Of a stretch of 64,000 bases of DNA, positions 1 through 13,364 are shown piece by piece. Below the pieces are notes generated by a model. The model worked only from the letters and a program-made list of their open reading frames with translations. It did not search any database and was not told the DNA's origin. Numbering within the stretch: the first letter of the stretch is position 1; every line of letters starts with the position of its first letter. The translations under genes and the position numbers were made by a program. Source of the DNA: Giardia intestinalis (taxonomy: Eukaryota); NCBI GenBank assembly GCA_000002435.2, contig CM018789.1. The stretch is one strand, 5' to 3'.

Positions 1-1
1 A

Positions 2-952
2 GGGACAGAGATCACCTGCACCAAATGCTCTAGCAATAATCTGAGCCCCCTGGGAGACGCGTGTCTAACAGACTGCCCTGCCGGAACGTATGCCGTTAGT
101 GGCGACAGCGGCAGTGTCTGCAAGCCCTGTCACAACACGTGCGCCGGCTGCCAGACCGACGACAGGGAGACTTCCTGCACGGCCTGCTACCCTGGATACT
201 CCCTTCTGTATGAGTCCAACGGAGCAACTGGGAGGTGCGTCAAGGAGTGCACTGGTGCGTTCATTACCAACTGTGCGGACGGGCAGTGCACGGCTAACGT
301 CGGGGGTGCGAAGTACTGCACCCAGTGCAAGGACGGGTACGCCCCGATCGACGGGATCTGTACAGCGGTGGCAGCTGCCGGGAGAGACGTGAGCGTGTGC
401 ACGGCCACAGGTGGCAAGTGCACGGCATGTACAGGCAACTATGCGTTATTATCAGGTGGATGTTATAACACACAAACACTTCCTGGAAAGTCAGTATGTA
501 AAGCCGTGGCTAATAGCAATGACGGGAAATGCAAAACATGTGCCAATGGTCAAGCACCAGATCCTGCTACTAATTTCTGCCCATTGTGTGATTCAACTTG
601 TGCAGAATGTTCAACTAAAAATGATGCTGATGCTTGTACAAAATGTTTTCCAGGATACTATAAAACAGGAAATAAGTGTATCAAATGTACAGAAAGTAGT
701 AATAACGGAAAAAAGATCGATGGAATACCTGATTGTTTAAGTTGTGAAGCACCGATTAATACTGGTCCTGTCATCTGCTACGTTAAAACGGATGGCACTA
801 GCGATGATAACAGCGGCAATGGTGGAGACAGCACCAACAAGAGCGGCCTTTCCACTGGCGCCATCGCGGGGATCTCCGTCGCAGCCTTCGTCGTCGTGGC
901 CGGCCTCGTGGGCTTCCTCTGCTGGTGGTTCATATGCAGGGGGAAGGCGTAG
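2..952 (+). CDS. Variant-specific surface protein (VSP), C-terminal 317 codons; 5' end lies outside the window
   Basis: Frame 2 is open from base 2 to the TAG at 950-952. The translation is Cys-rich with CxxC pairs and a GGCY motif, a C-terminal hydrophobic TM (IAGISVAAFVVVAGLVGFLCWWFI) and the invariant CRGKA tail. It is identical at the protein level to the C-terminal part of the minus-strand VSP at 3601-5391. The ORF track begins at 368 only because that is the first GTG in frame. Confidence 0.9.
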   Translation, partial: GTEITCTKCSSNNLSPLGDACLTDCPAGTYAVSGDSGSVCKPCHNTCAGCQTDDRETSCTACYPGYSLLYESNGATGRCVKECTGAFITNCADGQCTANVGGAKYCTQCKDGYAPIDGICTAVAAAGRDVSVCTATGGKCTACTGNYALLSGGCYNTQTLPGKSVCKAVANSNDGKCKTCANGQAPDPATNFCPLCDSTCAECSTKNDADACTKCFPGYYKTGNKCIKCTESSNNGKKIDGIPDCLSCEAPINTGPVICYVKTDGTSDDNSGNGGDSTNKSGLSTGAIAGISVAAFVVVAGLVGFLCWWFICRGKA

Positions 953-967
953 ACTTAGGTAGTAAAC
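953..967 (+). promoter_or_regulatory. Extended VSP-type polyadenylation signal ACTTAGGTAGTAAAC (contains AGTAAAC = AGTRAAY) immediately 3' of the stop
   Basis: The sequence gcgTAG ACTTAGGTAGTAAAC is read directly. It matches the conserved Giardia VSP 3' motif ACTYAGRTAGTRAAY. Confidence 0.8.
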
Positions 968-3099
968 GCGTCACTGTATATGGCTTATTACGCTGTGCTG
1001 CTGGGGCTATCTGAGAGCGGTCCAGAGATCATGCGAGTGGGCCCGCTCCTTCCTGGCCAGTCTAAGGACGAGGGTTGAGTATGGATAACATAATGAAAGA
1101 GTCCTCTTCAGTGACACATCCAGAATCTGGGCATTCCTCGCCGCTCCATGAGGATATGCTCTGTCTGGATGTCCATGCCGATCTGCCTTGGATTCAGGTC
1201 TTCTCGCAGACTCTCTGCTCTACCAGTGGCGCCTCTCCTTGGCCTGCCGTCTGGTGGGTGAAGCTCCAGTCGCCGTCTTTTTTAGATGCTCCCGTCTGAC
1301 TCGGTGATTGCTGTCGGGCCCTCCGCTGGCTGGGCCCCTCGGTGTCCGGGCAGCTGTGGCCCGGGTCAGCGCTCCCACAGTCGCGGTCGCTTGGGTCCCA
1401 GCGGGTTCGGATGATGGGTGGGGCGGTGAGGCTGGTGGGGCTCTGGTGGGGGCTGAGGTTGGTGGTGTTCGTATGTGCCTCTGGGTTCGGTGGGTCATTG
1501 GGGTGATCCCCGCTCTGTTTGCCAAGGTGGTTGTGTCTGCTCTCCAGCCCTCGTTGCACTCCCGAGACACAGGCACCGACGATCGTGTCGTGTCCCCCTG
1601 ACTGAGTGCCTCCCTTGGCCCCTGCATGCCTCAGGCAGTACTGCTGCTCTGTCTGGCTGGTGCGTGAGTGTCGAGGCAGGCCATCGCAGCCCCTCCTGCT
1701 ACTCGCTGTTGCTCTGTGCGGGTCTGCTGAGCCCCTGGCATGCCCTGTCCGGTGCCTCGACGGGGAGTTCACCTGGGACCAGCAGGGGTGTGGATGAGCC
1801 TGTGGATGGGATGGGTTCTCTCATGCCTCTAGTGTGATGACTCAAAAGACTAACACGGTGGGGCATCGGTGACTGCACTGTCCCCGTGGTCAGCTGTGCT
1901 GCTCCTGGTGGGTCCTCGTTGTGAAGCGCTGTGTGTCGTCCGTAGGCAGGGGTGAGCCCCCTTGGTCTCAGGATGCTCTACCATCAGAGAGGAGCACGCT
2001 GAGGATCACCCAACATCACCTGCTGTGCCCTCGGGAGTTCCCGGTGTGGTCTACTAACCTTGACCCCTCCTCGTGGCTCTGATGACCCCTCGGGGAGAGT
2101 CGGCATCCTATGCCAGGGGAGGCGTGCACCCTCCTGCATGAGCTGAGTCACTCACTGCACTGCCCTCAAGGAGGTCTGCTATGAGAGGCAGTGGAATGAT
2201 CGACAGCCCCTCAGAGTGGGTGGAGGGTGCTCGTGGTCGTCTCTGTGACCGGGCATCACTCTGATGGTCAGTCCTGTGCCTGGGTGGTGCTCAGAGGTCA
2301 CCTGTGCTCCATAGCCTGCTGGACAGCCGGGCCTCTTGTGGTGTCCGAAGGTCTCCTCACTCCTCTGGCTGCTGCCCCCTCAGGTCATCGTGAATGCAGT
2401 CGAGGCCAGCGAGTCTGGTGCCTGCCTGGGTGTCATGGGGGCTGGCAGCTGTCAGGGCTCTGCCACTGCTCACCTGCCTGGAGTGTGCCTCCCTTGGGCC
2501 TGCTCTGCTGTAGTGTTTGAGTCCTCTGGCTTCCTATCAGGCCCTGATTGTGAGGGTGACCCCACCTGGTCCTCTGATGCCCCTGTGGATGAGCATGGCA
2601 GCTGTCTGGCTGGGAATCTCTGGTGCCCGTGTCTGTTGCTGCCTCTCGGGTGCTCGGGTGGTTGCCTGGGGCTCTCGTATGGGGCACAGTCAGCGTGTCC
2701 CGAGCAGACTCCGGTCCTCTCTGGGTCTACACAGTCTGTTCGTGTGTGGACGGTCCTCCTGCACTCAGGTCCGTCTGGTTCATTGTCACTCAGCTTCGAG
2801 AGTAGGCCAGTGCAGTCACCAGGGCTGCTGTCAGAGGGAGTCGTCTGCCACTACCATCGCTCGAGCAGGCCCTGCAGATCAGGCTGGCTGCTGTGCACCC
2901 TCAGCATCATGGCAGGGCTGCTTAACTCCCTTGGTCACCCTCTCTGTCCCAGCGTGCACGGCTCCTGAGGGTTGCCTGGGCGGAGGGCACTCACGAGTCC
3001 ACAGAGGGATGGGTCACAGATAGACAGCCCCCAGTCACCACAGCTGCGATCACCCGACATGGCCCATCAGACCCAGGGGCACATACAACCACCCCCCGG

Positions 3100-4552
3100 T
3101 CCCCTCCAGCCTCACCGCCCCATACCCCGCCTCACCCATCATCCGAACCCGCTGGGACCCAAGCGACCGCGACTGTGGGAGCGCTGACCCGGGCCACAGC
3201 TGCCCGGACACCGAGGGGCCCAGCCAGCGGAGGGCCCGACAGCAATCACCGAGTCAGACGGGAGCATCTAAAAAAGACGGCGACTGGAGCTTCACCCACC
3301 AGACGGCAGGCCAAGGAGAGGCGCCACTGGTAGAGCAGAGAGTCTGCGAGAAGACCTGAATCCAAGGCAGATCGGCATGGACATCCAGACAGAGCATATC
3401 CTCATGGAGCGGCGAGGAATGCCCAGATTCTGGATGTGTCACTGAAGAGGACTCTTTCATTATGTTATCCATACTCAACCCTCGTCCTTAGACTGGCCAG
3501 GAAGGAGCGGGCCCACTCGCATGATCTCTGGACCGCTCTCAGATAGCCCCAGCAGCACAGCGTAATAAGCCATATACAGTGACGCGTTTACTACCTAAGT
3601 CTACGCCTTCCCCCTGCATATGAACCACCAGCAGAGGAAGCCCACGAGGCCGGCCACGACGACGAAGGCTGCGACGGAGATCCCCGCGATGGCGCCAGTG
3701 GAAAGGCCGCTCTTGTTGGTGCTGTCTCCACCATTGCCGCTGTTATCATCGCTAGTGCCATCCGTTTTAACGTAGCAGATGACAGGACCAGTATTAATCG
3801 GTGCTTCACAACTTAAACAATCAGGTATTCCATCGATCTTTTTTCCGTTATTACTACTTTCTGTACATTTGATACACTTATTTCCTGTTTTATAGTATCC
3901 TGGAAAACATTTTGTACAAGCATCAGCATCATTTTTAGTTGAACATTCTGCACAAGTTGAATCACACAATGGGCAGAAATTAGTAGCAGGATCTGGTGCT
4001 TGACCATTGGCACATGTTTTGCATTTCCCGTCATTGCTATTAGCCACGGCTTTACATACTGACTTTCCAGGAAGTGTTTGTGTGTTATAACATCCACCTG
4101 ATAATAACGCATAGTTGCCTGTACATGCCGTGCACTTGCCACCTGTGGCCGTGCACACGCTCACGTCTCTCCCGGCAGCTGCCACCGCTGTACAGATCCC
4201 GTCGATCGGGGCGTACCCGTCCTTGCACTGGGTGCAGTACTTCGCACCCCCGACGTTAGCCGTGCACTGCCCGTCCGCACAGTTGGTAATGAACGCACCA
4301 GTGCACTCCTTGACGCACCTCCCAGTTGCTCCGTTGGACTCATACAGAAGGGAGTATCCAGGGTAGCAGGCCGTGCAGGAAGTCTCCCTGTCGTCGGTCT
4401 GGCAGCCGGCGCACGTGTTGTGACAGGGCTTGCAGACACTGCCGCTGTCGCCACTAACGGCATACGTTCCGGCAGGGCAGTCTGTTAGACACGCGTCTCC
4501 CAGGGGGCTCAGATTATTGCTAGAGCATTTGGTGCAGGTGATCTCTGTCCCT
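3100..4552. repeat. Right arm of the inverted repeat (reverse complement of 1-1450)
   Basis: Same evidence as the left arm. The arm is bounded on the right only by the window start, so the repeat may extend further into the VSP coding region. Confidence 0.85.
3586..3600 (-). promoter_or_regulatory. Extended VSP polyadenylation signal (reverse complement gtttactacctaagt = ACTTAGGTAGTAAAC) 3' of the minus-strand VSP
   Basis: Mirror image of 953-967, immediately after the minus-strand stop at 3601-3603. Confidence 0.8.
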
Positions 4553-5391
4553 GCCCGTGCAGCGCTTTCCTTAGAGGTGCATTCTCCACAGTTTTCTATG
4601 CCGCCATTATTCGTTGTGCCACAACTTACGCATACCTTCTTGTTACCACCAGCGCTGTCAGTAGTGGGGAAGTGCGTCTTGCCTTCTCTGCACACGGCTT
4701 CGCTAACGCAAGACGTTTGTTCATCTGCTTCTGTTTTCAAATAATCAGCAGCACATTCAATGCACTTTGCAGGACCAGCGTTCTTTGGCTTTTCACATTT
4801 AGCACATCCAGCAACTCCTTTGTAGCTATTAGGCCCTGTGGTAGCGTCACATTTTATGCACCCACCTTCATTTCCAGTTGCTCCAACAAAGTATCCGTCT
4901 ATACATTTTGTACATTTGTTTTCACCAGCTCCTCCACATGTGGCACAGTTGGCATCTTCACATGCTATACAGGAGTCTGCAGTTGCAACAGCATCCGAAT
5001 TCTTATAATAGCCATCCTTGCAAGCACCACACACCCCTGCAGTACGTGCACCAGGATTTGACGCCTCATCCGCACAGATGAGATTGCCAGGAGCCTCTCC
5101 TATCTTATAGCATCCGCCTTTGTGCAGGAAGTAGCCATTTCCACATTGTCCACATACCTTATCACTTTCTTCTATATTAGTACCCCCGTTCTTCTTACAA
5201 CCAGCGTTAGTGACTGCTTCTTCACTATGGGCTGTACATATTCCATTGATGGGTACTTTCCCTTGATTACATTGCATACAGATTTCAGTATCGCCAATCG
5301 TATCACATTGGCCAGCTTCACAACTATTTCCACTATTCTTGCAATCTACTGCAAATGTAGATAATATAAGATAGAAGGCTATCAACAACAT
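3601..5391 (-). CDS. Variant-specific surface protein (VSP), complete, 596 aa
   Basis: ATG start. N-terminal signal peptide MLLIAFYLILSTFAVDC. About 12% Cys in CxxC spacing, GGCY motif, single C-terminal TM and CRGKA tail. AT-rich region upstream (5392-5650) is consistent with a Giardia promoter. Confidence 0.95.
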   Translation of the reverse strand: MLLIAFYLILSTFAVDCKNSGNSCEAGQCDTIGDTEICMQCNQGKVPINGICTAHSEEAVTNAGCKKNGGTNIEESDKVCGQCGNGYFLHKGGCYKIGEAPGNLICADEASNPGARTAGVCGACKDGYYKNSDAVATADSCIACEDANCATCGGAGENKCTKCIDGYFVGATGNEGGCIKCDATTGPNSYKGVAGCAKCEKPKNAGPAKCIECAADYLKTEADEQTSCVSEAVCREGKTHFPTTDSAGGNKKVCVSCGTTNNGGIENCGECTSKESAARAGTEITCTKCSSNNLSPLGDACLTDCPAGTYAVSGDSGSVCKPCHNTCAGCQTDDRETSCTACYPGYSLLYESNGATGRCVKECTGAFITNCADGQCTANVGGAKYCTQCKDGYAPIDGICTAVAAAGRDVSVCTATGGKCTACTGNYALLSGGCYNTQTLPGKSVCKAVANSNDGKCKTCANGQAPDPATNFCPLCDSTCAECSTKNDADACTKCFPGYYKTGNKCIKCTESSNNGKKIDGIPDCLSCEAPINTGPVICYVKTDGTSDDNSGNGGDSTNKSGLSTGAIAGISVAAFVVVAGLVGFLCWWFICRGKA

Positions 5392-5649
5392 TGAAGTTTC
5401 CCTCAGCTTATTATAGGGTAAGAGTCCTGTTAGTAAAGGTACTTAAAGCTAAAAAGATTCATCTGGTTATTACTATGCTACTAACTTAGAGATCTTCCTT
5501 TTTTATAATATCGTTGTACAAGCGATAGTTGTTAATGCTGAAAGCATCTACTACATATAGTTTGCCGCCCACCACGGATTCTTGCACAACACGCAGGGAA
5601 ACAGAAAATTCAAAAATAAGTAGCGATGCTGTCTTGCGTGTCTGCTACT

Positions 5650-8600
5650 CCCCTACCCTGTAGCTAATCAAAGGGCGGCCCGGGCGTCCTCCCTGCGTTA
5701 TGGGCCCACTGCTGGTTCCTCTCCTAATGTCTCTGCGTCCCTGATGAGCCAGCTCCCTGTGCCTCCCCTGCGCGGATCGAGCCCCTGTGGACCCCCGTGC
5801 GCCGATGATCTCTTCTCCGCCTCTGTAGTATTCTCATCCTTTTGGATTATGTCTGCGATTCCTAGCTGTCGTGGGGGAGCCGCACTCAAGGATAGACCCC
5901 TACAAGATCCCAAGAGAAGATCGCAGCAGTCGCTAAGGTCCATAGATGTGTGAATCAGTGTAGATTGGCCTATGAGACGCTCTGGTTTGTTGGGTGTGCA
6001 TGGCGCTATTTCTGGCTTTTTGTAGTGGATACTTTAAGGTTCCACATCACATGATAAGGTGTCAGATGGTCAGAGGGCGTAGGCCAGCAATCCTAAATTT
6101 AGACAAGGAGGAAACCCTGCCCAAGCTGTGCCACCCCCTGAGCTGATGGATCAGGACTCTTATCCTCCCCTCTGGATCATCCTGGTGCTATCACTACCAC
6201 CACTAATGGAAGCACCTAGGAGTGCAGTACCTTGAACCTGTTAGTGTAGGGCTCTAGGTCCTCAGAGCTTCCTACATGTGGATGTCTGTAGTAGAAGGAA
6301 CAGGGATCCAGGGAGACTGTATTAGTCCAGCATCCTTTATAGCCTCCTGTGAGTACTAGAGCAGTTGATCCCCCCATCTGCTGATAAGGGAATCGAATAG
6401 CATTCGCTCATGACCCTTGGTCCGAGCTATAGTTGGTCCCGAGGAGACACGCCGATCAGCCCAAGCGTCCTACCTCTTGACTCACGAATCATGCCACATT
6501 GCAGGACTTGTACTGGTGTTGCTTAGCACGCGTTACATAATGCATAGAAGGCCGGCATCCTCCTATCATATAGCTATAGGAATCAGACAAACCCTATTGA
6601 GGGCATCATATCCTGCGATCTTCTATAGCTCCGCTAGAGGCCAGAGCACCGCTGTACACAGACTGGTATGGAAAGTGCGATCCAGCACCATACACCTTGA
6701 GCTGGGAGTCCCATAAGCATGCGTTTCTGATACAACTCGCCAAGAATCTTGTAGGAAGCTGGCCTAAGTCAGTTACTGGAAGGTTTCCAATGAGCAGACG
6801 ACTGCTGTGGTCTACCAGTCGCTCCTCCTTGTCTTAAAAGATATCTGGTAATGTCTAGTGTTGTGGGCTGGGTGGTCCCTGTCCATCTATAAGATTTGAC
6901 TGGTGTACGTTGTAGACAACTGACGAGATTGATATCATCTTCCATCAGATGGGTCTGGGTGAGCAGGCAAACTATGTAGTTGACCGGTTATTCTAAAAAA
7001 TCCTGCACTTATGAGGCCACAACTACAACTTGCATTCGATAGGTAAGGAGTTCTATTGGACTGGGATGCTCTCTGCAAGTTCCTCGGGACGTGTGGCTAC
7101 CTTAGCGCAGTCTCCAAGAGGGTAGCCTTGTCTGACGGAGACGTGCAGGCACGAGCACAATATAGCGCCCTTCTCAGTCTACAGGGTCAAGCACACCCCA
7201 GACGACGGAGATAGATGGAGACCCAGAAGTGATCAATGCTAATCTGAGCTGTTCTGATCCCTCTTGGCTAAAAGATTAGTAGGATCGCAAAATGACAGGG
7301 ACCCACTTCACACCCCCGCTCAAGGAGGTCATGCCTTAGTGGAAGTACGTGTCATGGTTACTGCTGACTACTCGTTAACAAGGTACTGCTGTGCTTGAAG
7401 ACCTCCTGGAATAGCCTGTCTCGGTTTGCTGGTCATGAGCTGGGTCCTCGCGCTAGCTGATTGGATGAGAAACAGTAGTAGTATTACCCAGACGATGAGC
7501 TGAGAAGGCTGATGCTGACTATGTATCTCTCACGCTGAGCATACCCACTGTGCAGCGCAAGGGATTTGACGTCCTAGGTGGTCAGTCGAAGCTGCTAAGT
7601 GTTTGGTAGTAACGATATGCACGCGGGCTCCAGACAGCGGATTGTGAGTGAAGATGTTGGGGAGCACAAGACCTGCTGGATTACATAAGACGTACAAAGG
7701 ACCCCCACGCAGTGAACTGATTGACCCTTTTTCTTGGTAGACAAGGCTCTGGCCTGTAGTGGCCGCCTGCATAACACATTCTTTTGTGGGACCGATGGAA
7801 GCACCTGTTGATCTGGAAAGACCATCAATAAATGGTTGCACGAGATAGACGGGCAGAGGACAAGAGCTGATCAGATCACCTTGGCTGATGAGCAATCCAA
7901 ACTACGCAGTATGTGTAGCAACCTGTATCGAAGGTGGAGATACATCGTAGGACGTCATGTGGCCAAGAAGCGTCATTGGTGTCCGTCTGCCGTGGGAGGA
8001 CGTAGGTGAGACACATGTGGACAGCAACCATGCCGACTGATACCAACCTGCGCAGTATACCTCTACAATCGATCCTCACCCGTATACGAAGGGAAGGTGA
8101 ATGCCCTCGGTTCCAAACGAAGCAACTCTTAATAATATTACGTTGCTGTAAGTGCATAAAATCAAAAAGCAGCATCTAGCTTGTCTGCAGACCCTACGAC
8201 CTCTCCAGGCATAGAGGTCAAAGAGGCAATACAGGTGTCCCTGCTGTAATTCAGGCTAATTGCTGGCCTCTCTAGCATCAGTTTTATCTCACTGGTCTGC
8301 TGGTGGCCTCTACCTTCTCTGTGTGAGCCGGCTCTCTGAGAATCGCTGTGCACGGATAGCTTCCTGTGCACCTAAGTAACACCCTTCTTCGTTGAGGTGT
8401 GTCACCAAGGGCTAAATATTATAAAGCGAATGCTACCAAAGACAAGCCTCCTCGTAGGTCCGTCTGCCACTAGCAGGGAGCATCCAAACGTGTGCACAGG
8501 TTCTTGACAAATGGACTGTGATCCAGGCCAGTCAGTACACTAGGCTTATGGCACTTGGTGCACGAGTTTCCGTTTTTAGCTTTAGATGCAGGCCCATGTC

Positions 8601-11600
8601 TCATCTTGAAAGACGGTGGATTGCTCTGCAGGACCTTTTTAAGTATACAGTTATCATTATAGCCAGTGGAGAAGCAGCCATAAAGACTCTATACTTAAAC
8701 AAAAGCACCTCTGGTGCAACCAAGCGCTGTCTCCTATCGATAGCAAACACCTCAGACAGACGGTGGCTACTCTACCATTGGACATCGTGCAACGTGGATA
8801 ACCATGGAAGCCGCTGTAATCTCTATTCAGTCTGCCGAGCAGACGCAGCCTCTGATCGCAGCAAGCACGATGGCTGACAGGGTGCCAATGTAAGCCAGCT
8901 GAACCGCCTGTCTCAGCGCAGCTGCATGCATTTGGAAGTTGGAGTGCACCTTTATGAAGACAACGCACCGTCTGTATATACCGTTGTCTCCTTCTGTGCT
9001 GCTTAAGATCTTAATGCCTCAGAAGTCAGGGCCAGCCAGAGTGTCCCCAGCCTGCTCACCTGGGAGACCAAGGTCGATACCGCGCATAATACATCATCTT
9101 AGGGAGACAGCGGCTGCCATCGTCGTTCCGGATTTTTTGGTATCAGACAATCAGCCCCGTGATTAGTCCACTTTTCATAGCCTCTATCTGCATATCGATC
9201 CTGGCTTCTGGCTGCTTAGGCAGCGGATGAGGAGGCAGTACAGAGCATCAGTCACTGGTCTGCCTTTTATCCGCACATGGCCCTGAATGGCGGGTCAGAC
9301 AGTGCACAGCTTCCTCTTCTGCCCTGGATGTGATGCAACCTAGCTGAGGCATATGCCTTTCCAAGGAGTGATCGGATAGCACCTGGAGCTGCTCATGATG
9401 GGCATGCTCACCATCGCCCAGCTCTGTCCTCTCTCCAGCCATCAAGAGATACCTCCTGAGTACATACCTGCGGAGCACTGCATAGAGATAACAAGACGGC
9501 GCCACCACCCCTCGAGTCTCCTCGGCTTGTCCGGCAGCGTGCCTCTTAGAGTCCAGTGTGGGCCCGCCGGATGCATTTATGCGACTGTGGATACCTTACA
9601 GCGTCGCACTCATCTAATTCACTCTGTACCCTATTCTATCTGGGAGCAGCCCAGCCGTGCACAGGAGTCCCAGCCCCCACTCAGGATCTGGTCCAACGCT
9701 CACCTGGCTCGATGCCCTGCTGCACCTTGTTGGATGCCGCGCTGAAGCTATCGATCTGGCGATGCTCTGGGCGCACCACCCCACATCCACGCTGCTATAA
9801 AGCAGAGATCCTCAGGCTGCCCGTGGCCCGTTATAAGAGCTGTGATGCATAACCGCACACAGAGTGCCTGACTTAATATGCACCTGTCCACCGATGTGCC
9901 CTGACACTTGCTGGTGGAGATGCGTTGCTACAACCACGCAAGTGTTTACACCCCCTAGAGACTCTCACGCCATGCAACATAGAACTCTCCTGCCTGGCAC
10001 GGGCTCCATGATACTAAGGCCCTAGAAGAGCGCCCTGGGCGCCTTCAGTCCTATTTGGAGAGGAGACGTGGTGCGGGAGGGCTAGCTGCTTTCCAGCGTG
10101 ACTTAGAATAGTTGGAAGACCGCATGAAGACCTCTCACCACATGACCAGCGTGGTGTTCTGCCATCTGCCACTGATATAAGAGCCAACCCGCTGAGTCCA
10201 CATCGAGGCAGAGCACCACCCAACAGTGTAGGCGAGACTTATAACCGTGCTCATACATGTACACGCTGCTCGACCGGTTGGTGCCCATGTCCCTACGCCC
10301 TGCTCCTTCGCTGTACAATTGCTCCAATCGAGGCTACCAAAGCGTGGGTCCAGTAGCCACTATGCCCGTTGTACCGACAACGACAGCATGCCGCTTGCTG
10401 TAGGCGCCATCTACATCCAGGCATGCTCTTCACCGTTGTGCTGCTTCTGGTGCACTATGCGGCTTGTATGATGATTCATGTCCCCGGTGACCACTGGGAG
10501 TGTTGTCCCCGTGCCATCTTGATATCGAGTCCGATAATTGCCTGACAGAGCTCCCGGCTTGTGTGACCCTATATGGTAGTCTTGATTAGCACACAAATGT
10601 GTAATAGTTATGCTGCAAGACCCAGTAACAGCCGCTGGCCACTCGCATTGAGGTGAGAGACCAGACAGAAGTAGGAGTAGAATGCCCAAGAGGAACCATA
10701 TCATTAGATCTGCATCTGCAGAGAAGTTCACCTGTCACTACCACAGGGACAGGGCTCCATGTAAAGTATCAGTGAGCAATACCATAGGCAGTACCCCGAC
10801 TGTGCAGCTGCGGTGGCCGATGATCTGGAATGCTGACACATCTGCTACCGTCATGGATGGACTGGCAGGCCAGATAAGGATGCTCTAGGCTGCGATGGAA
10901 TCGCATGAGATTGTGTATGACTGGGGGTCACTTCCTTGTTATGCCTGCTATCGAAAGCCAGCTCATGAGATGGACAATCTTGGAGTGGTCAGTCCCCGTG
11001 TTCTCCCAGACATCAAGACTGTGAGGGCCTCCATGAGCTTTCATGTCCTCGTCCAGTCATGCTGGCTGTTCTCAGAAGCAGTCATAACTGTCGGGCCTGT
11101 TCGGATGCCACACCCCTGCAGGCCTCGGTGCTTTGAGCACAGCTTCCAGGCTGCATGCGTGCATTGGTGGACACCAGGTACGTCACTCGCTCCCTATTTT
11201 CTAAGCCTGTTATGACAGGGGTAGCCCTCACTAGCCTGACCCAGCCAAGCCTCCTGGCGTCCTACGCCGGGAGTTGCGGGGCCCAGACAGTTGTCTTATC
11301 TACACTATGGTTGCCATAATGACGGGTATATGATCACAGCCCTGATGGGATCATCTTCGCTGTCCTGGCGGACCTCCAACTCTTCAATGGGATAGATACG
11401 GGGCACCATCTCTCGACACTTTCAGCGAGGGTGACAGGCGCAGTGCTCTCGATACCAACAAGTAATGATGTTGGAGCGCAATGGACTGTCACAGAGTTAT
11501 AAAATTTCCTTCTTCCTTCCTACGTTAAAGCTGATCAATGTTCGAACTCTCTCGGATTAAATCCAGAAGTTGGCAGGACACCGCGTCCCGGTGAGGCTCG

Positions 11601-11720
11601 GAAGCTCAAGATCAGCATGTGATCACTAGCCGTTGAGAATAATGCACAGCACTCAGCAGCTCTCTCTCAGGGTCTGCTGGAGGCTGAATGAGCACAGGCA
11701 GGCAAAGCTCTTATGACGAG
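5650..11720. other. 6.1-kb region with no credible coding potential (gene desert / degenerate sequence)
   Basis: In about 6 kb the longest six-frame ORF is 121 aa, and stops occur at random-sequence frequency in all frames. There is no codon periodicity, no Cys-codon enrichment and no tandem repeats. Base composition is near even, with scattered short AT-rich patches. Confidence 0.5.
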
Positions 11721-11777
11721 CCATCGATTTAAAAGGATATTAAAAAATTACGAATAACCCCTTTAAATTCAAAACCA
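11720..11777 (+). promoter_or_regulatory. AT-rich initiator/promoter region upstream of the 11778 ATG
   Basis: The sequence gatttaaaaggatattaaaaaattacgaataacccctttaaattcaaaaccaATG is a typical Giardia short AT-rich core promoter directly abutting a start codon. Confidence 0.55.
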
Positions 11778-13364
11778 ATGGGCCAGTCGCCGTCCAAGCT
11801 TGCACCCCCGCCTTTCCTCGCGTTGCCAGTGCCTGGTGTAAGGTTCACAGGCCCCAATGGTACGACGTGCACGTGGGCAGACCTGTACGCCCACTGTTCT
11901 ATCAGGGCCCAGAAAGCCGTCCTTGACGCGTTCAACATGAAGTACAGGGAGAAGGTCGTCCACTGGCACGGGACGTTGCTGAATGCAGATCCTAGCACTA
12001 ATTCCGTCCTTTTCAAGATGAGCCCCTCTATCAACCAGGGGGCCGTTCCCGACCTGGCTCTTCACTTTCCTCAGTCGTTTACGGTGACGCAGCTTCAGCC
12101 TCTGATAAAAATGAATGAAATGAAGACGATCGACTTCGTGGGGAAGCTGAGAGGGATGAACGGGCCCGTAATTGCCGCTGACTACGTTTCTGTGGGCGGA
12201 GGCTACGTTGAAAAACCCGAGCACAATCTTCCAAAGACCGTTGCTGATGCGCTGCATGCGATTCCGGAGGCCTTCCCCTCTCTGGCTGCTCTGGAGTCTC
12301 AATTGACGGTGGAGTATCCTATGGTTGCGATGGAGTGCTCCATGCAAGCACGCGGGCTTCCTGAAGCTATCTTCATGAGGCACATCACTAAGGTTGCCGG
12401 CGCCTTATCCTGTCAGGTTATAGAGGTGTCTCCTCAGAACGCCAAGGTCAAGTGCAACCCCCGCATAGATGAGAAGGCGCCGTTCGATGTTCTAGTTACT
12501 TTCCAGCCAGCCATGGCTGCGAAGCTCCCAGAGGTCAAGCAAGGGGCGCTCTGCACTTTCCGGGGCAAGTACACCTCGATATCAACAGCACGCGAGCCGC
12601 AGAAGGTCTTTGGATTTGCCGCCGACGACGTTGTTCTCAATAAGGATCCTGCGGCAAGCTTAGCATCCCTGCCCACTAAGGGGGGCGATGTGTTCTACCA
12701 GGGTCAGGACGAAGTTGTGATGAAGAATCTCCGTGCTCAGGTTGAGTCTGATAGGCAGCTTCATAAGTCCATGAGGGGTGGTGCCCACGCACAGACACCA
12801 GCCTCTGCTCCCACTCCAGCGCCGCCGGCTCCATCAGAGCCCGCATCCTCATCTGCAGGGCACAAGCCAGCTGATGATAAACCCGTGGAGGAGCCACCAG
12901 CTGAAGCCTCAAAGCCAGCCGAGCCAACGCCGAAGGTCGAGGAGGTCAAGCCGCCAGTCATCGAGGAGACAGTGTCAGACGTTGCTGGGAAGGATCCTCT
13001 GGAGGTTGCTCTTACCCTCATGCAGTCTGCGCCAGAAGCGTCCTACACTGTCAAGAAGAGCATCCTCGATGCAGATGAACAGGAGGACGACCCAGTGGCC
13101 CGCATGGCCAGGCTGAAGATGGGCGGCTTCAACGCCAGCGCGTTTACTTCCTCCGCCGACAAGTACATGGGCGAGCTGGACATGCTAGCCGGCGTAAAGC
13201 CAACGCAGCAGAGTGACTATGACGTGTATGACGTGGCTAATGACTACAATAATACAAACAACTATGATAGCTACAACAGTGGCTACGATAACTATAACAG
13301 CGGCTATGACAACTATAGCAGCGGTGGCTACAACAGCTATGGCGGCGGCTATAGCAGCTGGTAG
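11778..13364 (+). CDS. Hypothetical protein, 528 aa; predicted N-myristoylation motif (MGQSPSK), acidic Pro/Glu/Lys-rich linker and C-terminal Tyr/Asn/Gly/Ser-rich low-complexity tail
   Basis: Long ATG-initiated ORF with an AT-rich promoter upstream. No recognisable catalytic domain. The MGxxxS N-terminus matches the N-myristoyltransferase consensus. The C-terminus contains degenerate YDNYNSG repeats. Confidence 0.6.
   Translation: MGQSPSKLAPPPFLALPVPGVRFTGPNGTTCTWADLYAHCSIRAQKAVLDAFNMKYREKVVHWHGTLLNADPSTNSVLFKMSPSINQGAVPDLALHFPQSFTVTQLQPLIKMNEMKTIDFVGKLRGMNGPVIAADYVSVGGGYVEKPEHNLPKTVADALHAIPEAFPSLAALESQLTVEYPMVAMECSMQARGLPEAIFMRHITKVAGALSCQVIEVSPQNAKVKCNPRIDEKAPFDVLVTFQPAMAAKLPEVKQGALCTFRGKYTSISTAREPQKVFGFAADDVVLNKDPAASLASLPTKGGDVFYQGQDEVVMKNLRAQVESDRQLHKSMRGGAHAQTPASAPTPAPPAPSEPASSSAGHKPADDKPVEEPPAEASKPAEPTPKVEEVKPPVIEETVSDVAGKDPLEVALTLMQSAPEASYTVKKSILDADEQEDDPVARMARLKMGGFNASAFTSSADKYMGELDMLAGVKPTQQSDYDVYDVANDYNNTNNYDSYNSGYDNYNSGYDNYSSGGYNSYGGGYSSW
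13214..13361 (+). repeat. Degenerate in-frame tandem repeats (about 21-nt units, GGCTAYGAYAACTATAACAGC) encoding the YDNYNSG low-complexity tail
   Basis: The DNA-level repetition ggctacgataactataacagc / ggctatgacaactatagcagc / ggtggctacaacagctat is visible. Confidence 0.6.

Follow-up and report, generated by a model that had tools for sequence, protein, structure and literature searches.

At the start of the DNA analysed here (64 kb of Giardia intestinalis WB chromosome 1, called the window below), two VSP1267 genes face each other tail to tail across a stretch that is conspicuously poor in A on one strand, and whose composition reverses away from the middle. What is this stretch, where does its strand asymmetry come from, and why does the reversal lie off-centre?

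The gap between the two VSP1267 ORFs is 2648 nt long (953-3600), and the right copy encodes 596 aa. Since both values agree with the chromosome 1 entry d112208/112208 in Table 2 of Xu 2020 (PMC7000408; 596 aa, spacing 2648 bp), the locus is that pair, and the A-poor tract is the known non-coding spacer between the tail-to-tail VSP1267 copies GL50803_112208/d112208. Tail-to-tail pairs have been described before (PMC2996952, PMC7000408, 10.1101/2022.03.07.483299), this locus among them, with its identical 596-aa ORFs and a non-coding spacer resembling those of other pairs. All 12 WB tail-to-tail pairs (12/12) are spaced by 2526-2813 bp, with no annotation in between (Xu 2020, PMC7000408). For the class, ~2.4-3.2 kb of non-coding DNA separates the ORFs, and flank identity breaks off abruptly 318-559 nt beyond the stop codon (Adam 2010, PMC2996952). 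In the VSP1267 pair, arm identity stops 474 nt beyond the stop codon, at 1426/3127; identical facing ORFs, spacing and abrupt flank divergence, the three traits of the class, are all found here. The features on which the argument relies are the following:

1 to 952, + strand: left VSP1267 copy, 3' part (ORF table), ending in CWWFICRGKA and a stop, cut by the window start
1 to 1426, no strand: visible part of the perfect left palindrome arm, 100% complementary to 3127-4552
953 to 1129, + strand: proximal 3' flank of neutral composition (sequence, motif scan, composition)
1130 to 1566, + strand: left-arm portion depleted in A (8.7%; AT skew -0.52)
1401 to 1463, + strand: G-run block on the VSP-sense strand, predicted to be G-quadruplex-prone (G4Hunter 2.08, top score in the 64 kb)
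1427 to 1566, no strand: degenerate inner extension of the left arm ('left-type'); blastn pairs 950-1566 with 3603-2990
1567 to 2989, + strand: one-way, non-coding spacer core in unique orientation, with no inverted partner
2990 to 3126, no strand: degenerate inner extension of the right arm ('right-type'); the composition reverses at its left edge
3080 to 3150, - strand: G-run block mirroring 1401-1463, in the VSP sense of the right copy (G4Hunter 1.96, second in the 64 kb)
3127 to 4552, no strand: perfect right palindrome arm, 100% complementary to 1-1426
3601 to 5391, - strand: right VSP1267 copy, complete, 596 aa, with a CRGKA tail (ORF table)

CRGKA is the C-terminal end of both copies, and the last 952 nt of the left copy, the part lying inside the window, are 100% identical, inverted, to 3601-4552. 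The canonical VSP poly(A) signal AGTAAA is found at 961-966, 8 nt past the left stop codon, and the motif scan placed the signal of the right copy at 3587-3592 on the - strand. The vsp1267 pair was reportedly described by Mowatt et al. in 1991. Adam 2010 (PMC2996952) credits it to its ref. 17. Public assemblies had no record of the exact 596-aa VSP; for the neighbouring 528-aa gene they gave short-read contigs only, ending ~400 bp upstream of the gene and short of the spacer.

The first-pass annotation had put A at about 10% in 1300-2950. The depletion stands, but not the figure: A amounts to 12.5% (206/1651), with T 24.7%, G 33.1% and C 29.8%. This is the lowest content of A or T among all 1650-nt windows of the 64 kb (z = -5.9; background for A or T 25.4 +/- 2.2%, minimum 18.4%; window median for A 25%). 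Sliding composition likewise bore out the strand skew, AT skew being at or below -0.35 from ~1130 to ~2900, and weaker in islands at 1750-1850, 1950-2250 and 2800-2900. The A-free run quoted as an example is present, 62 nt from 2617, and is the longest non-A run in the 64-kb window. The reversal, announced near 2960-2990, is seen between 2950 and 3000. Beyond it, 2990-3250 had been called T/G-poor and C/A-rich; it is T-poor (9.2%) and C-rich (42.9%), but hardly G-poor (25.3%) or A-rich (22.6%). The lengths of A-poor sequence, given as 1.65 kb after the + copy and 0.26 kb after the - copy, had to be revised to ~1.86 kb (1130-2989) and ~0.43 kb (3420 to 2990). Stop codons number 0.026 per codon in the tract versus 0.043 in adjacent non-coding DNA, and AT-rich 10-mers are six-fold depleted in the spacer (1.9 versus 11.8 per kb).

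The repeat search returned an inverted repeat, 1-1426 / 3127-4552, with 100% identity and a 1700-nt gap, its left arm cut by the window start. The palindrome centre falls at 2276.5 and the reversal at ~2990, so that the switch is off-centre, as had been proposed. The perfect arms are not the whole palindrome, as 1427-1566 still aligns with the right arm at ~63-79% identity with many indels. Consequently, the mirror relation claimed between 2990-3250 and 1300-1450 is exact for 3127-3250 = 1303-1426, and degenerate for 2990-3126 = 1427-1566. The core inside (1567-2989) has 13.6% A, 62% GC and a CpG observed/expected ratio of 0.38. Because the palindrome exceeds its perfect arms, extending to 1566/2990, the reversal is the junction between the unique core and the inverted right arm, at the latter's degenerate inner end, and not an independent feature; its off-centre position means that the core retains the polarity of the left unit, and nothing else. 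We also considered whether the reversal marks an origin or terminus of replication, and dropped the idea, as the skew is limited to ~2.3 kb and its edges coincide exactly with repeat boundaries. The switch should not be taken for a replication or transcription landmark.

Is the spacer peculiar to this locus? The tract recurs, with 82-94% identity, on six metagenome contigs (L003-L008), anonymous assemblies in which paralogues of one genome and copies from different Giardia assemblages are indistinguishable. On L004, L007 and L008, it lies directly 3' of three further, different VSPs. In WB itself, the S4 table of the 2022 preprint (10.1101/2022.03.07.483299) groups the tail-to-tail spacers as 'very similar', the 112208 spacer being placed in group *5 and called identical to that of 115797. 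Membership of a repeat family, one of the early suggestions, is thereby upheld: the family is dispersed, and it is tied in position to VSP 3' ends, so that it is not the kind of dispersed repeat, unconnected with VSP 3' ends, that would have spoken against the first-pass annotation. An internal degenerate repeat array was found by neither TRF, self-blastn nor k-mer counts: TRF reported only two tiny arrays in the tract (26 and 16 nt), self-blastn gave nothing with E below 0.1, and repeated 8- and 10-mers exceeded a first-order Markov expectation by no more than 2.4-2.7 SD. JGI metagenome contigs, apparently free of Giardia, had no match to a 23-mer conserved in the core, nor to the VSP stop codon followed by the extended poly(A) signal.

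The related copies also tell how the spacer is built. The L004 and L006 cassettes have inverted ends without a second VSP, and in L004 both inverted ends are present, with 87% mutual identity. Left-type inner sequence is common to L004-left and L007, and right-type inner sequence to L004-right and L006. Since each type is shared across loci, and L004 has both without a second VSP, the imperfect inverted ends are ancestral and older than the divergence of the copies. The VSP of L007 has 39% amino-acid identity to VSP1267, while its 3' tract and its 5' upstream region have 82% and 79% DNA identity to those of the window; the non-coding flanks (~80%) are therefore far better conserved than the VSPs they bracket. 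L008 is a mosaic, its identity to the window dropping from 100% to 83% along the flank. Finally, among the six copies identity is 90-94% in the core and 74-86% in the flanks. A core better conserved than its flanks is not what is expected of a purely neutral spacer, and may point to constraint or to conversion between loci.

The reading that we favour, and hold to be probable, is that the tract is the one-way spacer cassette of a tail-to-tail VSP pair, its skew a fading trait of the founder sequence, and its switch the junction of core and right arm. The ancestral unit runs in one direction: the VSP is followed by ~180 nt of neutral flank, in which the poly(A) signal lies, by ~440 nt of A-poor flank closed by the G-run block, and by the A-poor core of 1.4 kb. 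At the far end of the core, the initial ~600 nt downstream of the VSP recur in inverted orientation, and at the VSP1267 locus so does the VSP gene. The arms are presumably kept identical by arm-to-arm gene conversion, which would halt where homology fails, in the indel-rich G-run block. The cassette would thus serve mainly as a spacer and as a homology scaffold for the inverted duplication and the identity of VSP genes.

Human X/Y palindromes are comparable in their near-perfect arms, unique spacer, gene-family members and raised GC (PMC3723533, PMC8981503), and their arm identity is credited to intrachromosomal gene conversion (same references). They differ in measuring tens of kb to Mb, against kb in Giardia. 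In addition, the Giardia spacer is a conserved cassette repeated across palindromes with different genes, and gene conversion is inferred there. What we describe is a known element with modest new descriptive detail. Adam 2010, Xu 2020, the 2022 preprint and Franzen 2013 mention neither the A/T strand asymmetry and its decay, nor the degenerate arm extension, the ancestral left- and right-type ends and the boundary G-run blocks. To a structure still called cryptic by Giardia researchers, the present analysis adds testable details: tail-to-tail spacers are a one-way cassette with ancestral, imperfect inverted ends, the cassette can occur with a single VSP, and a conserved G-run block marks the end of perfect arm identity. 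If these details bear on VSP duplication and homogenisation, they matter for the evolution of the antigen repertoire.

The G-run blocks raise a more active alternative. Perfect arm identity stops inside the left block, at 1426, where TRF finds a 9-nt GGTGGGGCT x3 repeat at 1417-1442, and all related loci whose sequence reaches the block (L003-L007) have it at the same place and on the same strand. A canonical G4 motif (four runs of at least 3 G, loops of 1-7 nt) is found nowhere in the 64-kb window. Under relaxed thresholds (loops of at most 12 nt, or G4Hunter of at least 1.5), the window holds only three motifs by loop length, at 1393-1423 (+), 2648-2684 (+) and 3118-3160 (-). The idea of a G-quadruplex-prone strand consequently holds for one 60-70-nt block per arm, and fails for the tract as a whole. 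The companion idea of a triplex is excluded: H-DNA takes a homopurine/homopyrimidine mirror repeat of roughly 15 nt or more, and between 1100 and 3450 no run of purines or of pyrimidines exceeds 9 nt (purine fraction 0.46). One further candidate, a peak of left/right arm identity beside the G-block of L004, expected if conversion starts there, was rejected, this identity being patchy and following conserved blocks of the whole family.

In this alternative, which we consider unlikely, the cassette is a recombination module: G4-prone blocks would hold up replication or transcription and set off repair that copies from the opposite arm, homogenising the VSPs outwards, and the inverted ends could template an inverted duplication of the adjacent VSP. 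Several observations are in keeping with it, namely that the two top G4Hunter blocks of the 64 kb are symmetric and both contain the end of perfect identity, that their position and strand persist despite indel-rich sequence, that inverted ends exist without a second VSP in L004 and L006, that L008 is a mosaic, and that all WB tail-to-tail pairs have near-equal spacing. Nevertheless, the blocks lack a motif with loops of at most 7 nt, and the L004 arms are just 87% identical although L004 has both blocks, which means that the block alone is not the driver of homogenisation. Moreover, the loss of homology at so indel-rich a block would by itself be enough to end conversion. The pilE G4 element of Neisseria, reportedly the work of Cahoon and Seifert in 2009, is said to support G-quadruplex-dependent gene conversion in antigenic variation. 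With it the VSP block shares a G-run element adjoining an antigen gene and a fixed strand orientation to that gene; it differs in having no canonical G4 motif, its G4 being a predicted one, so that the likeness is only a lead. VSP switching in Giardia is regarded as an epigenetic or post-transcriptional process rather than one of recombination. The full form of the proposal, a module dedicated to the VSP repertoire in which inverted ends copy the VSP at the left end, G4-prone blocks at the inner arm edges start or stop conversion, and the conserved 5' and 3' non-coding flanks are homology anchors for exchanging different VSP coding regions, strikes us as rather improbable; if true, it would be a eukaryotic counterpart of the bacterial antigenic variation systems that rely on G4 and flanking homology.

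Returning to the fading founder trait of the favoured reading, the skew itself could be judged from the substitutions among copies, polarised by majority rule with 3-6 sequences. In the core, rates per 1000 are 19.1 for A>G versus 20.1 for T>C, and 20.7 for G>A versus 23.5 for C>T, and all six complementary pairs are equal (Fisher p 0.4-1.0). A was gained 52 times and lost 18 times (p = 6e-5), implying an equilibrium A content of ~0.31, against 0.13 now. The arms, with 5-6 sequences, show no substitution asymmetry either, and 10 gains of A for 2 losses. With strand-symmetric substitutions and a net gain of A, the skew is a decaying relic and is not maintained; strong as it is, it should not be taken to show that a mutational or structural process is at work today.

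An ongoing form of the transcription-associated mutation bias suggested at first therefore finds no support. In this proposal, for which we see very little likelihood, strand-biased mutation linked to transcription or repair makes and maintains the skew today, by read-through of the VSP with the A-poor strand as non-template. The A-poor strand is indeed the sense strand of the VSP at the left-type end, in arms and core alike. On mammalian non-template strands, T reportedly exceeds A and G slightly exceeds C, a finding attributed to Green et al. in 2003. The direction here is the same on the sense strand (T>A, G at or above C), but the Giardia skew is many times larger, -0.3 to -0.6, far beyond known transcription-linked skews, and substitutions among the copies show no strand bias. 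Unequal complementary rates, the defining feature of such asymmetry, are found in neither core nor arms, so that the feature is lacking at present. One comparison of three arm sequences had G>T above C>A (p = 0.004); the difference was gone with 5-6 sequences. Furthermore, the VSP poly(A) signal lies ~170 nt ahead of the onset of the skew. As for the founder's A-poverty, our best guess is an old asymmetry linked to the direction of transcription, or avoidance of A/T-rich signals in the VSP sense, neither of them active now.

That the cassette recurs beside varied neighbours invites comparison with a foldback-type mobile element, present or former, with long imperfect terminal inverted repeats and insertion beside VSPs, an origin to which we give slight credence. 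The unit measures 2.4-2.6 kb, has inverted ends of ~370-600 bp, and exists in several copies, flanked on the right by a MEC-17-like acetyltransferase gene in L004 and by unrelated sequence in L006. However, it has no capacity to encode a protein, nor any trace of a transposase or reverse transcriptase, and its right-hand ends differ, corresponding to window position 3486 in L004 and 3557 in L006. All visible outer left-type ends continue directly from a VSP 3' end, so that neither the limits of an element nor a target-site duplication can be made out. The literature on the GilD/GilT/Genie retrotransposons and the Girep RNAs yielded nothing bearing on the tract.

We also see very little likelihood in a role for the spacer as a signal-free loop, in which read-through into the antisense of the other copy yields a long hairpin RNA that feeds the proposed VSP-silencing RNAi. 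The inverted-repeat arms are perfect over at least 1.4 kb, and the depletion of AT-rich 10-mers would suit such a loop, as would the alternative long 3' UTRs of some VSPs (preprint 10.1101/2022.03.07.483299). AGTRAA is absent from both strands between the canonical signals at 961 and 3587, but over 2.6 kb this absence is not significant, ~1-1.6 occurrences being expected per strand. RNA folding of the core gave no excess structure (mean z ~+0.4 on both strands, as in the coding control), and Rfam had no match at E <= 1 in positions 1-12000. Single-VSP cassettes exist, and tail-to-tail pairs hold only ~13 of the ~136 VSPs.

That the tract could be a protein gene or a decayed one, such as a VSP pseudogene, and owe its composition to this, can practically be dismissed: ORFs of up to 210 aa do occur on both strands and the preprint (10.1101/2022.03.07.483299) calls the spacers 'VSP like region', but the period-3 signal-to-noise is 1.1 in the core versus 10-29 in real genes, Pfam has no match to the tract, 118 of the 123 indels that distinguish the copies have lengths not divisible by 3, stretches with 89% identity in DNA have 50% identity in amino acids, and tblastn against VSP proteins found no similarity (best E-value 0.42). 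The ORFs listed in the first-pass annotation are present in the ORF table, 1194-1772 being on the - strand, and its view that they are spurious and that the skew is not due to coding agrees with all of these measures. HMMER, run exhaustively against 1.8 billion proteins, matched only spurious ORFs of the same family, and the long spacer ORFs should remain unannotated.

The A-poor tract lies between two ORFs for VSPs (Giardia surface antigens) that face one another with a separation of 2648 nt:

to 952, + strand: left VSP copy, with the identical tail, followed by ACTTAGGTAGTAAAC (ORF table, sequence)
3601-5391, - strand: right VSP copy, 596 aa, cysteine-rich, ending in ...CWWFICRGKA (ORF table)

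As a single pair of that size is present in Table 2 of Xu et al. 2020 (PMC7000408; chromosome 1, d112208/112208, 596 aa, 2648 bp), the locus is the VSP1267 pair d112208/112208 of G. intestinalis isolate WB, the earliest inverted VSP pair in the literature (Adam 2010, PMC2996952). The tract is therefore an already known spacer cassette, the one that separates the two copies of the tail-to-tail VSP1267 pair within a published palindrome. In WB, all 12 of the 12 tail-to-tail pairs are 2526-2813 bp apart, with no annotation in between (Xu 2020, PMC7000408). The S4 table of a preprint (10.1101/2022.03.07.483299) groups tail-to-tail spacers as "very similar", and calls those of 112208 and 115797 identical; 11521, 115830, 16501 and 137708 make up another spacer group (*3). 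Given this agreement, the spacer family and its association with VSPs were already known. The main text of the same preprint describes the 112208 and 115797 pairs as 'head to head', in conflict with the S4 table of that preprint, Table 2 of Xu 2020 and the window, all of which have them tail to tail. No mention of a strand asymmetry of the spacer was found in Adam 2010, Xu 2020, the 2022 preprint or Franzen 2013. Also without documentation there are the one-way polarity of the core, the ancestral left-type and right-type inner ends, the cassettes with a single VSP, the G-run blocks that are conserved where perfect arm identity ends, and a conservation of the flanks that exceeds that of the genes between them.

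The first-pass annotation, which had pointed to A depletion over 1300-2950, was correct and careful, and the compositional oddity is real. Base counts over this interval (A 12.5%, T 24.7%, G 33.1%, C 29.8%) bear it out with small numerical corrections: A and T each make up at least 18.4% of every other 1650-nt window of the 64 kb, and the z of the tract is -5.9. At 100-nt resolution, the skew sets in around 1130, about 180 nt past the stop codon, and is maximal at 1200-1550 and 2400-2750. It is weaker at 1750-1850, 1950-2250 and 2800-2900. Between 1130 and 2989, dinucleotides made of A and T are strongly avoided (TT 0.38, TA 0.38 and AA 0.52 of the expectation from base composition), meaning that the T's are almost all isolated between G or C; the commonest trinucleotides are CTG, CTC and GTG. 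AT-rich 10-mers are six-fold below the window average in the tract. Beyond the two canonical VSP signals no AGTRAA was found there, where only about 1 per strand is expected. One weak-skew island, at 1838-1860, is private to the window copy, which reads GACTCAAAAGACTAACAC where L004 and L005, two metagenome contigs, have GGCCCAGAAGACTGGCAC and a third, L007, has GACCCAGAAGACTGGCAC; it is a local G>A cluster.

The skew reverses between 2950 and 3000, near 2960-2990 as had been noted, and 2990-3250 is C-rich and T-poor (C 43%, T 9%). The perfect inverted repeat spans 1-1426 and 3127-4552, with its centre at 2276.5, so the reversal is indeed off-centre. With a sensitive blastn, the palindrome was found to extend past the perfect arms, 950-1566 pairing with 3603-2990. 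These additional 140 nt of the arms are 63-79% identical and carry many indels, and only the core, 1567-2989, is unpaired unique sequence. The polarity of the core continues that of the left arm, and the inverted right arm has the opposite one. The flip at about 2990 is thus the junction of core and right arm and nothing else: the polarity switch is a repeat junction, not a separate feature.

Relatives of the tract were retrieved from ENA metagenome assemblies by protein searches with three spurious ORFs.

Metagenome contigs related to the tract, with the matching part of the window and its identity
L003: window 2157-3097, 89% identity
L004: window 830-3486, 83% identity
L005: window 1501-3109, 87.5% identity
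L006: window 2399-3557, 83% identity
L007: window 757-2711, 82% identity
L008: window 820-1380, 93% identity

The change from A-poor to T-poor is present in each contig that is sufficiently long, and in three of the six (L004, L007 and L008) the tract stands immediately 3′ of another VSP. The idea of a repeat family associated with VSP 3′ ends was therefore upheld. The VSP of L007 has only 39% protein identity to VSP1267, yet at the DNA level the 3′ tracts are 82% identical, and window 5583-6133 has 79% identity to the 5′ upstream region of the L007 gene, meaning that conservation is far higher in the non-coding flanks than in the VSP genes between them.

When all arms were aligned in VSP-sense orientation, the inner 140 nt fell into two versions. 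The left-type is common to the window left arm, the left end of L004 and L007; the right-type is common to the window right arm, the right end of L004 and L006. Since both versions recur across loci, the imperfect inverted ends are older than the divergence of the copies. In L004 (1-6072), both inverted ends are present, 87% identical over 369 bp, with a VSP at the left end only; further right are:

L004 3101-3697, - strand: MEC-17-like tubulin acetyltransferase gene, right of the cassette (Pfam PF05301, E = 3e-30)
L004 4266-6071: additional VSP-family gene

The right side of L006 is also without a VSP. In both contigs that allow placement (L004 and L007), the single VSP is at the left-type end, so that the core, read in the direction of that VSP, is poor in A. 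A 50-nt block of the arms, 1290-1339 (mirror 3214-3263), is 100% identical in both ends of L004 and in the right end of L006, with adjacent blocks at 75-90%; its core, GGGCTCTCCGCTGGCTGGGCCCTCGGTGTCCG, is a candidate conserved arm motif.

The contig L008 (1014-1567, aligned with window 820-1380) carries another VSP, whose 3′ end and first 150 nt of flank are 100% identical to those of VSP1267. Identity to the window is 100% at 953-1100 and drops stepwise to 83% at 1301-1380, where L008 is closer to L006. L008 is a mosaic; this points to recombination between cassettes and suggests a gene-conversion tract between loci. Between copies, the core 1567-2989 is 90-94% identical, whereas the flanks 953-1566 and 2990-3560 are 74-86% identical. 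A core more conserved than its flanks is unexpected for a neutral spacer, and may reflect constraint or inter-locus conversion. We infer that the cassette most likely serves as a spacer and as a homology scaffold for inverted VSP duplication and arm-to-arm homogenisation: with such a scaffold, a VSP could be copied in inverted orientation and the arms kept alike.

The ORFs named in the first-pass annotation are all present in the ORF table, and stop codons are 40% scarcer in the tract than in the non-coding sequence next to it. That these ORFs are spurious, and the skew without coding cause, was confirmed. The period-3 signal-to-noise ratio is 1.1 in the core versus 10-29 in five real genes of the window, and 118 of the 123 indels between copies are not multiples of three. 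Pfam returned no family for seven ORF translations from the tract, and comparison of the VSP with the spacer by tblastn gave a best E of 0.42. When 1.84 billion representative proteins were searched exhaustively with HMMER, 6 matched, 5 of them ORFs of the same DNA family and 1 marginal. Rfam gave no match, and RNA folding of the core was no lower in energy than that of dinucleotide shuffles (mean z +0.4 on both strands, equal to the coding control). We conclude that the tract is neither protein-coding nor a structured RNA. Local RNA folding below shuffled controls was seen in the VSP-sense arm, at 1075-1374 (+) and 3175-3474 (-), with z of -2.2 to -3.3, the sole such signal in the region between the ORFs.

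Of the structural causes proposed for the skew, G-quadruplex propensity is limited to one block per arm. No canonical motif exists in the whole 64-kb window. Allowing loops of up to 12 nt, only three motifs were found in the 64 kb, at 1393-1423 (+), 2648-2684 (+) and 3118-3160 (-), and the two top G4Hunter scores of the window are at 1401-1463 (+, 2.08) and 3080-3150 (-, 1.96), the third being 1.64. Both G-run blocks are on the VSP-sense strand of their own arm, and the perfect identity of the arms stops within them. A block of like position and orientation, poorly conserved in sequence, occurs in L003, L004 (both ends), L005, L006 and L007. These predicted G-quadruplex blocks at the identity boundary are the most interesting lead. 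Against a role for them, conversion tracts would halt at any indel-rich block, and L004 has both blocks but its arms are not homogenised.

A transcription-associated mutation bias acting now is not supported by the substitutions, polarised as singleton differences from the majority in a six-sequence alignment. All complementary pairs are balanced among the 166 core substitutions (per 1000, A>G 19.1 vs T>C 20.1, and G>A 20.7 vs C>T 23.5; all Fisher p > 0.4). A is gained rather than lost (52 gains, 18 losses, p = 6e-5), G has 52 losses and 26 gains, and such changes would bring A to an equilibrium of about 0.31, compared to 0.13 at present. In the arms, with five to six sequences, A shows 10 gains versus 2 losses. 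A nominal excess of G>T over C>A, seen in the arms with three sequences, was gone with five to six. The substitution spectrum among copies thus gives no sign of present-day strand-biased mutation or of selection against new A's, and symmetric substitutions with a net gain of A mean that the skew and the high GC were inherited from a founder and are eroding. The skew is a fading relic and does not point to an active process; its cause in the founder is beyond recovery from these sequences. A triplex-prone strand (H-DNA) is excluded, as the longest purine or pyrimidine run of the tract is 9 nt and its purine fraction 0.46.

CpG is depleted in the core (1567-2989): its observed/expected ratio of 0.38 is the window minimum, compared to 0.78 elsewhere and 0.57 in other non-coding DNA. 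TpG and CpA are in excess (1.49 and 1.54 of expectation), and among family copies, C/G transitions are 1.9 times as common at CpG as elsewhere (p = 0.002). This pattern is a methylation-like decay signature; Giardia is not generally considered a cytosine methylator.

Upstream of the right VSP, 6.4 kb (5392-11777) contain no ORF of at least 125 aa, where the Giardia intergenic median is 79 nt. This stretch has an ordinary composition, with no skew and no internal repeats, and nine ORFs of 98-121 aa from it had no match in Pfam. Short-read (Logan) contigs that carry the next gene reach only some 400 bp upstream of that gene; the stretch therefore does not assemble from short reads. The 7-kb upstream region of VSP1267 has been described as resembling other VSP upstream regions and as containing transposon relics (preprint 10.1101/2022.03.07.483299).
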